A stretch of DNA of 20,376 nt, taken from positions 1-20,376 of the forward strand of contig SHMW01000078.1 in the NCBI GenBank assembly GCA_008080735.1. Reading direction: 5' to 3'. The notes below the pieces were generated by a model. It was given only the letters and a program-made list of their open reading frames with translations, ran no database searches and was not told where the DNA came from. This document shows, one piece after another, positions 2,793-4,854 of the stretch. The stretch is from Promethearchaeota archaeon. Its GTDB lineage: Archaea > Asgardarchaeota > Lokiarchaeia > Sigyniarchaeales > SOKP01. Each line of letters begins with the position of its first letter. The first letter of the stretch is position 1. Made by a program: the position numbers and the translations under genes.

Positions 2793-3248
2793 TTAACATA
2801 ATTCCAATAAAGCCTCAATTTTTTCTTTGCCTTCTGGACTCTTAACCTCTTCAAGAATGTTCCTTGCTAATTCCTTTTTCTTTTTAAAATAATGTTTTAA
2901 GCGCTCTTCGGGGCTCATATCCGGATATCTCCGTTTTAACGCCAGATCCCTTCTGGGACAACCCCCGCGTCGCATGCAACAATATGAGATTGATCCAAAA
3001 CAGACGATATCGGAATCCCAATTATGCTCTTCAGAAAAATTTTCTTTAATCTTAATAAACTGTTGATGAGACATTCCTAACTCAGATAAAACTTGGTCTC
3101 TTTTACATTTAAAACCAAATGTGAGTGAATAACCAGGTTTACAACAAAATGTTAATGCTCTATAATCGCCACCCATACAAATAGGTACGGGGGCATGATT
3201 TTCCCAACCAGGTAAATCTCGAAGCTTATCCTCTTCCAATTCAAGCAT
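2793..3248 (-). CDS. methanogenesis marker 9 domain (Cys-rich, COG4008-like) protein
   Basis: WENHAPVPICMGGDYRALTFCC...C...CFGSISYCC....CPRRD matches the remembered marker-9 pattern with 8 core Cys. Confidence 0.8.
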   Translation of the reverse strand: MLELEEDKLRDLPGWENHAPVPICMGGDYRALTFCCKPGYSLTFGFKCKRDQVLSELGMSHQQFIKIKENFSEEHNWDSDIVCFGSISYCCMRRGGCPRRDLALKRRYPDMSPEERLKHYFKKKKELARNILEEVKSPEGKEKIEALLELC

Positions 3249-3439
3249 CTTTCTTTAAAAATAACATGTACATTAAAAATCTATTAATATGGATTAATGA
3301 ATTATTTGATTTTAATTTTCCACTTAGCTTATATTTTTTCCCATCGGATTAACGAAAAGCTCTTTTCTATTTATTTTGAGCCTTGAATTAAAAACAGATA
3401 TATTTTCTTAAAAGTGAAAAGAAAGGGCCCGGGGCGGGA

Positions 3440-3468
3440 TTATCGATGAGGAGTCAATCTCAATCATT
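3440..3468 (-). other. tRNA intron 2 (29 nt) at T-loop position 59/60
   Basis: BHB-like: outer helix is the T-stem, central helix TTCG/CGAT (one U-U), bulges AT^A and AA^T, inner helix ATGA/TCAT. Removal restores a 7-nt T-loop. Confidence 0.8.
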
Positions 3469-3504
3469 ATCGAACCCGCCTCTAAGGATTCACAGTCCCC
3501 AATA

Positions 3505-3539
3505 GTGGCCATTATGGGGAGAAAAGAACCCCCAAAATT
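3505..3539 (-). other. tRNA intron 1 (35 nt) at D-arm position 22/23
   Basis: 4-bp helix GGTT/GGCC flanked by 3-nt bulges AG^A and AC^T, with an intron hairpin containing TGGGG/CCCCA. Removal restores the D-stem. Confidence 0.82.
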
Positions 3540-3570
3540 CTAACCGCTATACTACCCGGGCCATAATAAT

Positions 3571-3584
3571 ATATATTTAAAAAC
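3571..3584 (-). promoter_or_regulatory. TATA-box candidate for tRNA-His
   Basis: TTTTTAAATATATAT on the minus strand, about 10-20 nt upstream of G-1. Confidence 0.45.
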
Positions 3585-4293: not shown

Positions 4294-4854
4294 TTACTCG
4301 ATGTGAGTTCTAATATATTGTAAAAAGTTTTGGACAGCATCTTCTAAGGATCCCGTATTGTCAATAATATAATCCGCATCGGGAAAATCTTGATATAATT
4401 TGGCTCTTTCAATCCGTTCTTCCAGTCGTTTTCCGTGCTCCCTTCCTCTCTCTTTTATCCGTTCGATAGTCGTTTCTAACGGCACTCTGATAAATATTAC
4501 TTTGAGATTTTTGTAAAGTTTTCTGGCATCGGGAATTATAGTTCTACTTACGTTGACGACAATAGGGTGTCCCTCTGAAAGGAGACTATCAATTTTTATG
4601 GGAACTCCATAATTAAGACCATAAATATGCCATTTTAATGCAAATTTCCCCTCTTTTGCGAGTTCATTAAATTCTTTCTGAGTTACTGGTATGTTTTCTT
4701 CAGTTTCAGAAGGTGGTCTGGTAATATACCGTCTTGGGGTGTAAATTTTCTTTAGGTTCGAAGGATATTGTTCCATCGCTCCAGATATAATGGAATCTTT
4801 TCCAGAACCCGAATTTCCCACGACTAAAAATAACGTACCTGGATAATCTTTCAT
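4294..4854 (-). CDS. phnN: ribose 1,5-bisphosphate phosphokinase PhnN (guanylate kinase-like)
   Basis: P-loop VVGNSGSGKDS plus PhnN-typical RRYITRP, FALKWHIYGLNYGVP, VNVSR, RGRE and IDNTGSL. Confidence 0.85.
   Translation of the reverse strand: MKDYPGTLFLVVGNSGSGKDSIISGAMEQYPSNLKKIYTPRRYITRPPSETEENIPVTQKEFNELAKEGKFALKWHIYGLNYGVPIKIDSLLSEGHPIVVNVSRTIIPDARKLYKNLKVIFIRVPLETTIERIKERGREHGKRLEERIERAKLYQDFPDADYIIDNTGSLEDAVQNFLQYIRTHIE

Follow-up and report, generated by a model that had tools for sequence, protein, structure and literature searches.

The Thermoproteales are the classical hosts of non-canonical and multiple tRNA introns. Among the Asgard archaea, heavily interrupted tRNA genes with overlooked D-arm introns were reported in 2024 (Valentin-Alvarado et al., PMC11291895) and again in 2026, when a preprint by Goswami et al. 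on 90 genomes described D-arm introns that tRNAscan-SE had overlooked, repeated intron gains, an enrichment of BHB motifs and a two-paralogue EndA (10.64898/2026.10.13.758758). The tRNA-His(GUG) gene analysed here resembles the multi-intron genes of these two studies in carrying several short BHB-type introns at D-arm and T-arm positions, and it shares with them overlooked D-arm introns, repeated gains in close relatives and the two-paralogue EndA found in most genomes. The published studies were centred on Atabeyarchaeia and Jordiarchaeia/Freyarchaeia and reported median inserts of 22-23 nt (PMC11291895; 10.64898/2026.10.13.758758), whereas the present gene comes from a Loki-type lineage in which the tRNA-His introns are mostly exactly 30 nt; tRNA-His was not singled out in the main text of the 2026 preprint. 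The gene is a well-supported example of the already described Asgard interrupted tRNA genes and is not new in kind. An earlier note, made from the sequence, had suggested that it bears on the origin of eukaryotic tRNA splicing. That suggestion overstated both its novelty and its weight, because the Asgard enzyme type and intron-rich tRNA genes had already been published, and a single gene does not advance the question.

As presented in the 2026 preprint, the system of Fujishima et al. (2010) is alike in that it includes BHB or relaxed-BHB introns, as many as three, at a wide range of non-canonical positions and depends on a broad-specificity (alpha-beta)2 EndA (10.64898/2026.10.13.758758). It belongs to another phylum, and, as far as that account goes, the present gene differs from it in showing no significant cross-position intron similarity and no second genomic intron copy. 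As for the enzyme, an Asgard (alpha-beta)2 EndA with an L1 loop was published in 2018 (Kaneta et al., PMC5829648); the proteins encoded in this genome are like it in being a pair of paralogous subunits, of which the catalytic one carries the L1/CSL loop, and no difference was found. The Crenarchaea-specific loop, its K44 especially, enables cleavage of D-loop BHB and bulge-helix-loop motifs (Hirata 2011, PMC3241643). The present gene resembles the A. pernix pre-tRNA-Thr2 of that study in having a D-arm intron, and the Lys/Arg pair of the specificity loop aligns with K58/R60 of the enzyme described below; unlike the A. pernix (alpha-beta)2 EndA, which was biochemically tested, the enzyme here has an activity predicted from its sequence.

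The window, i.e. the whole stretch of 20,376 nucleotides that was analysed, belongs to a MAG of the Promethearchaeota, Loki-type Asgard archaea that also include the relatives used for comparison, in line with the Asgard-type genome supposed in the earlier note. Reading the minus strand from 3562 to 3426 gave exon, intron, exon, intron and exon in this order (23/35/36/29/14 nt), and the joined exons formed a 73-nt RNA that was called tRNA-His(gtg) by ARAGORN. The coordinates, segment sequences and tRNA-His(GUG) identity given in the earlier note were exact. The features of the locus are collected in Table 1.

Table 1. Features of the tRNA-His(GUG) locus and its surroundings, with positions in the window.
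Feature	Position	Strand	Content or basis
tRNA-His(GUG) gene	3426..3562	-	137-nt precursor body, G-1 to C73; ARAGORN call on joined exons
Exon 1, 23 nt	3540..3562	-	G-1, acceptor 5' strand, D-stem 5' strand, D-loop to G22
Intron 1, 35 nt, at 22/23 (D-arm)	3505..3539	-	internal G/C hairpin; motif-free spliced alignment
Exon 2, 36 nt	3469..3504	-	D-stem 3' strand, anticodon arm, 4-nt variable region, T-stem 5' strand, T-loop to U59
Anticodon GTG within exon 2	3493-3491	-	ARAGORN on spliced sequence
Intron 2, 29 nt, at 59/60 (T-loop)	3440..3468	-	motif-free spliced alignment
Exon 3, 14 nt	3426..3439	-	U60, T-stem 3' strand, acceptor 3' strand, discriminator C73
BHB-1 central helix, exon strand G18 G19 U20 U20a	3542..3545	-	pairs with intron bases 3507-3510
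BHB-1 central helix, intron strand GGCC	3507..3510	-	BHB scoring at fixed boundaries
Competing 11-bp helix	3526-3536 with 3481-3491	-	precursor nt 27-37 with 72-82
AT-rich TATA-like box, candidate promoter	3570..3583	-	8-21 nt upstream of G-1; sequence reading
T-rich tract, candidate archaeal terminator	3410..3425	-	directly after C73; sequence reading
Flanking protein genes	2793-3248 and 4294-4854	both -	matching genes in L002-L081

The spliced RNA has an acceptor helix of 8 bp, made up of G-1:C73 and seven further pairs, with G-1 encoded in the genome. Its D-arm contains G18G19, the GUG anticodon sits in a 7-nt loop (CUGUGAA) closed by a 5-bp stem, and a 4-nt variable region is followed by the T-loop UUCGAUU. 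The cloverleaf thus formed after splicing has U8, A14, G18G19 and a UUCRAUY-type T-loop, as is characteristic of archaeal tRNA-His; the D-stem is weak, with two G-U pairs, and is identical in compact relatives. CCA is not encoded after C73. T-rich 3' flanks are present in the tRNA-His genes of relatives too, and an AT-rich box similar to the upstream one was seen in front of the compact same-genus orthologue. Since the archaeal TATA-to-start distance is usually longer than the spacing at this box, its assignment as a promoter is tentative.

The intron boundaries were fixed first without any splicing motif, by spliced global alignment of each gene to a compact reference, and BHB motifs were scored only afterwards, which avoids circularity. 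The alignment to intronless orthologues placed an insert of 35 nt at 22/23 and one of 29 nt at 59/60, and no intron was found at position 37/38 of the gene, in agreement with the positions proposed in the earlier note. In a sliding test, no shifted boundary gave an identical spliced product at either intron, and exon 1 and exon 2 are contiguous in the compact orthologues L004, L005, L006 and L030. For both introns, the boundaries obtained without a motif were the BHB cut sites.

The central helix at intron 1 pairs GGUU with GGCC in all four positions (two G-C and two G-U pairs), with bulges AG|A and AC|U, and the inner helix consists of 3 bp, one mismatch and then 6 bp. It is without a contiguous exon-exon outer helix because C16 lies opposite A24, a mismatch where that helix should begin, and, with the inner helix only, intron 1 is therefore of the relaxed HBh' or bulge-helix-loop type. 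At intron 2, UUCG faces CGAU with 3 of 4 pairs formed and a U54-U mismatch, the bulges are AU|A and AA|U, the T-stem takes the role of the outer helix, and 4 bp make up the inner one. The flanking helices of the strict hBHBh' motif are thus both present in intron 2, and the inner alone in intron 1. The scoring agrees with the earlier description of both motifs as relaxed (two G-U pairs and no good outer helix in one, a U-U mismatch in the other). Under the criterion used in the 2026 preprint, which asks for four central pairs and one flanking helix, intron 1 would be classed as canonical and intron 2 as relaxed. Against a random background of about 650,000 boundary pairs within the window, motifs of equal quality occurred at a frequency of about 0.003 for intron 1 and about 0.0001 for intron 2. 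No C/D or H/ACA box was seen by eye in these 29-35-nt introns.

Folding of the precursor gave an optimum of -52.4 kcal/mol. An explicit structure with the acceptor stem, the anticodon arm and both BHB motifs reached -45.2 kcal/mol, and enforcing the BHB cores alone gave -47.4 kcal/mol, so that the explicit BHB structure lies 5-7 kcal/mol above the optimum. The unconstrained fold nearly forms the motif of intron 2. In the computed ensemble, the probability of the BHB-2 core was about 0.5, and that of the BHB-1 core only about 0.19, a minority conformer, owing to competition from a helix of 11 bp, with a probability of about 0.79, in which intron 1 (UUUGGGGGUUC) pairs with the 3' side of the anticodon arm. 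This helix could have arisen by chance, act as a folding trap or go back to the origin of the intron. The stretch UUGGGGG of intron 1 was also seen to be similar to the 5' half of the anticodon stem. Across relatives that share an intron position, the predicted BHB probabilities ranged from 0 to 0.99, some of the zero values coming from boundaries without register correction. Because of this variation, the unfavourable folding of BHB-1 is a caveat and not a refutation.

Relatives were retrieved via BLAST, an exact 19-mer from exon 2 and a family-wide pattern search, and in the retrieved set there are fully compact tRNA-His genes of 73 nt, including one of the same genus (G006, locus L004). Throughout the family, tRNA-His is flanked by the same 151-aa and 186-aa protein genes with 57-77% amino-acid identity. 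The tRNA-His loci are therefore orthologous, and the flanking genes provide a fixed landmark for comparing intron states. At this syntenic locus, the number of introns in the orthologues varies from 0 to 3, and at least six positions are occupied, near 8/9, 15/16, 20a/21-22/23, 37/38-38/39, 45/46, 58/59 and 59/60, which makes the locus a clean natural series for intron gain and loss. Within one genus, the source genome has introns at 22/23 and 59/60, G004 has the 22/23 intron only, G003 has an anticodon-loop intron only, and G006, the closest by its flanking proteins, has no intron. A contiguous 17-nt word of the tRNA-His anticodon arm, with at most one mismatch, was found by pattern search in 27 of 61 family genomes; the remaining genomes may have an anticodon-arm intron, as in G003, or may lack the gene in their assemblies.

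After splicing, 23 distinct orthologues aligned gap-free, except L012, in which one D-loop base is missing, and 505 of the 506 stem cells in the alignment were paired. Compensatory changes were seen in the acceptor and T stems, including the G7:C66 pair of the source gene, and G-1:C73 was present in the source gene and in all 23 orthologues. At the 22/23 introns, GGUU on the exon side is invariant and lies opposite eight different intron strands (GGCC, AATC, GATT, AACT, AACC, GCTT, GTCT and GCCT), each of which keeps at least three of the four pairs, and at the 59/60 intron of G061 the pair G57-C is replaced by A57-U, a compensatory change. Judged from these alignments, the maintained pairing of the central helix is the pattern that would be expected of introns held spliceable by selection; no p-value is attached to it because the relatives are not independent samples.

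The genome was found to contain exactly two genes with PF01974 matches, encoding proteins of 200 aa (contig C72) and 205 aa (contig C37), and each paralogue carries both PF02778 and PF01974, the N- and C-terminal EndA domains. The 200-aa protein aligned end to end with 3P1Z_B, the alpha subunit of the A. pernix enzyme (E=1.8e-37). Its K58-P-R60 aligned gap-free to K44-P-R46 of the Crenarchaea-specific loop in A. pernix, and it keeps the catalytic Tyr, His and Lys relative to 3P1Z_B, while 3AJV_B reads Ala at the aligned His. In an alignment to M. jannaschii 1A79, Tyr and His are replaced by Phe and Val in the 205-aa protein, which is, on the basis of these replacements, a structural, non-catalytic beta subunit. 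With one catalytic alpha and one non-catalytic beta subunit, the genome encodes what is predicted to be a two-subunit Crenarchaea-type EndA capable of cleavage, as anticipated in the earlier note, which had reasoned that such a genome needs an enzyme of broad specificity. Besides, two full-length paralogues of the RtcB ligase were found (C10:27830-29137 and C1:51843-53150), scoring 570 and 556 bits against PF01139. In the mechanism that we propose, the two-subunit EndA, consisting of the catalytic alpha with the K-P-R loop and the non-catalytic beta, would cut each 3-nt bulge after its second nucleotide, RtcB would ligate the three exons, and a CCA-adding enzyme would finish the 3' end of tRNA-His. 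Cleavage and ligation of the tRNA-His precursor presumably take place in this way in the cell.

The source assembly comprises 4.1 Mb in 140 contigs and is 93% complete with 7% contamination. ARAGORN with introns allowed counted 32 tRNAs in it and the Rfam tRNA model 28, and neither genome scan revealed another His(GUG) tRNA in the assembly. A profile of spliced tRNA-His searched against the genome with nhmmer had a single significant match, the source locus itself (E=1.6e-11), and a structural scan of the genome for GUG anticodon arms found nothing else that was tRNA-like. The intronless tRNA-His elsewhere in the genome that the earlier note had named as grounds for a pseudogene was thus looked for and was not found in the 93%-complete assembly; this completeness and the 7% contamination leave some room for a second tRNA-His copy. 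As this gene is the sole tRNA-His found, translation of every His codon would need correct splicing by EndA/RtcB at two sites, of which the one at intron 1 has a weak motif. Among the rejected candidates, a GUG-arm match on contig C88 and a BLAST match at C2:45860 were not tRNAs, and the ARAGORN call 'tRNA-His(atg)' at C2:49175-49276 was a mis-parsed tRNA-Gln(CTG) with a D-loop intron. This tRNA-Gln(CTG) on the plus strand has an insert of about 27 nt after nt 16 in the D-loop; the mis-parse by ARAGORN gives it a 13-nt intron. An insert of about 27 nt was seen at the same place in tRNA-Gln(TTG) at C6:47858-47959, also on the plus strand.

We consider it very probable that the locus is a single functional tRNA-His(GUG) gene with two protein-spliced BHB-type introns, at 22/23 and 59/60, that would be removed in the cell. 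One alternative is a decaying pseudogene, in which the inserts inactivated this copy while a working tRNA-His lies in an unassembled part of the genome. An assembly in 140 contigs at 93% completeness would allow for such a gene, and the motif of intron 1 is weak and thermodynamically a minority conformer. However, the exons are intact and form a clean cloverleaf with the compensatory G7:C66 pair, the relatives have tRNA-His at the syntenic locus, both inserts lie exactly at BHB-compatible sites, with the same positions occupied in many relatives, and a second His-like sequence was absent from the ARAGORN, Rfam, profile and GUG-arm searches. A pseudogene is accordingly given very little credence. 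Still less probable, in our judgement, is an artefact of binning or assembly, with the contig derived from another organism or the inserts representing assembly errors. The genes that flank the tRNA match those in relatives of the same genus and of the same family, independent assemblies of relatives have inserts at the same positions, and even a mis-binned contig, which an estimated contamination of 7% would permit, would still hold a real gene.

It may also be asked whether the motif at 22/23 is too relaxed for EndA, so that the D-arm insert would be excised with different ends, by a different route or not at all, leaving the T-loop insert as the sole true EndA intron. Only the cut at 22/23 restores the D-arm of the compact orthologues, and sliding of the boundaries is impossible. 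The four central pairs and the inner helix would be scored as canonical by the 2026 preprint, and the EndA of this genome has the loop that enables cleavage of D-loop BHB and bulge-helix-loop motifs (10.64898/2026.10.13.758758; PMC3241643). On the other side stand the ensemble probability of about 0.19 for the BHB-1 core, a local folding optimum that has a different register with 1-nt bulges, and the substantial minority of D-arm inserts without a canonical motif in the published genomes (10.64898/2026.10.13.758758). Taken together, these observations make a different fate of the D-arm insert about as improbable as a pseudogene, and EndA cleavage at both introns is the reading that we retain.

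The earlier note had further expected that standard annotation could miss the gene, and this held for ARAGORN and the Rfam tRNA model, the two tools for which it was demonstrated. On the unspliced DNA, ARAGORN reported zero tRNAs in the entire window, and the Rfam tRNA model gave none at the gathering threshold in the window and none at E<=1 on the tRNA-His locus. Both detected a compact tRNA-His orthologue; the gene escapes them because it is split by the D-arm and T-loop introns. The tRNA sets of Asgard MAGs look incomplete because interrupted genes escape standard finders. Since ARAGORN and Rfam recover only about 30 tRNAs from this genome, roughly one third of the expected tRNA set is probably hidden in the same way as tRNA-His. 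When tRNA genes with an intact T-arm were defined by anchors, 22 of 32 had a length of 102 nt or more, in most cases 102-106 nt, corresponding to one insert of about 30 nt; the parsimony-based census of tRNAs in the genome is crude, confuses class II tRNAs and was used qualitatively only.

The lengths of the tRNA-His introns in relatives were strikingly uniform, with 44 of 64 distinct introns exactly 30 nt and 8 of 64 of 29 nt long. The peak at 29-30 nt was common to D-arm, variable-region and T-loop introns at loci L002-L081, and the 35-nt intron 1 of the source gene is a length outlier. In an all-against-all local alignment of 53 distinct introns, the best true score for similarity across positions was 12.5, compared with 9-14 for shuffled sequences. 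It corresponded to a shared 12-mer (TGAGAGATTCTC) between one 22/23 intron and one 58/59 intron, the top-scoring pair having been set aside as the same intron mis-classed by position in the alignment. Copying of introns between positions was rejected, as the similarity was within the shuffled range, and a blastn-short search for other genomic copies of either intron gave chance 11-18-mers only. The range of 0-3 introns at at least six positions, the four states in one genus and the predominance of exactly 30 nt raise the idea that the locus records an active mechanism inserting fixed-length BHB mini-introns, which we regard as an unlikely though not negligible explanation. In a genome of another genus (G009, loci L002/L063), introns were seen at 20a/21 (or 22/23), a position ambiguous because three registers yield the same product, and at 58/59. 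The latter is one base from the 59/60 site of the source gene and looks related to its intron in sequence, and the two may have come to differ in position by intron sliding.
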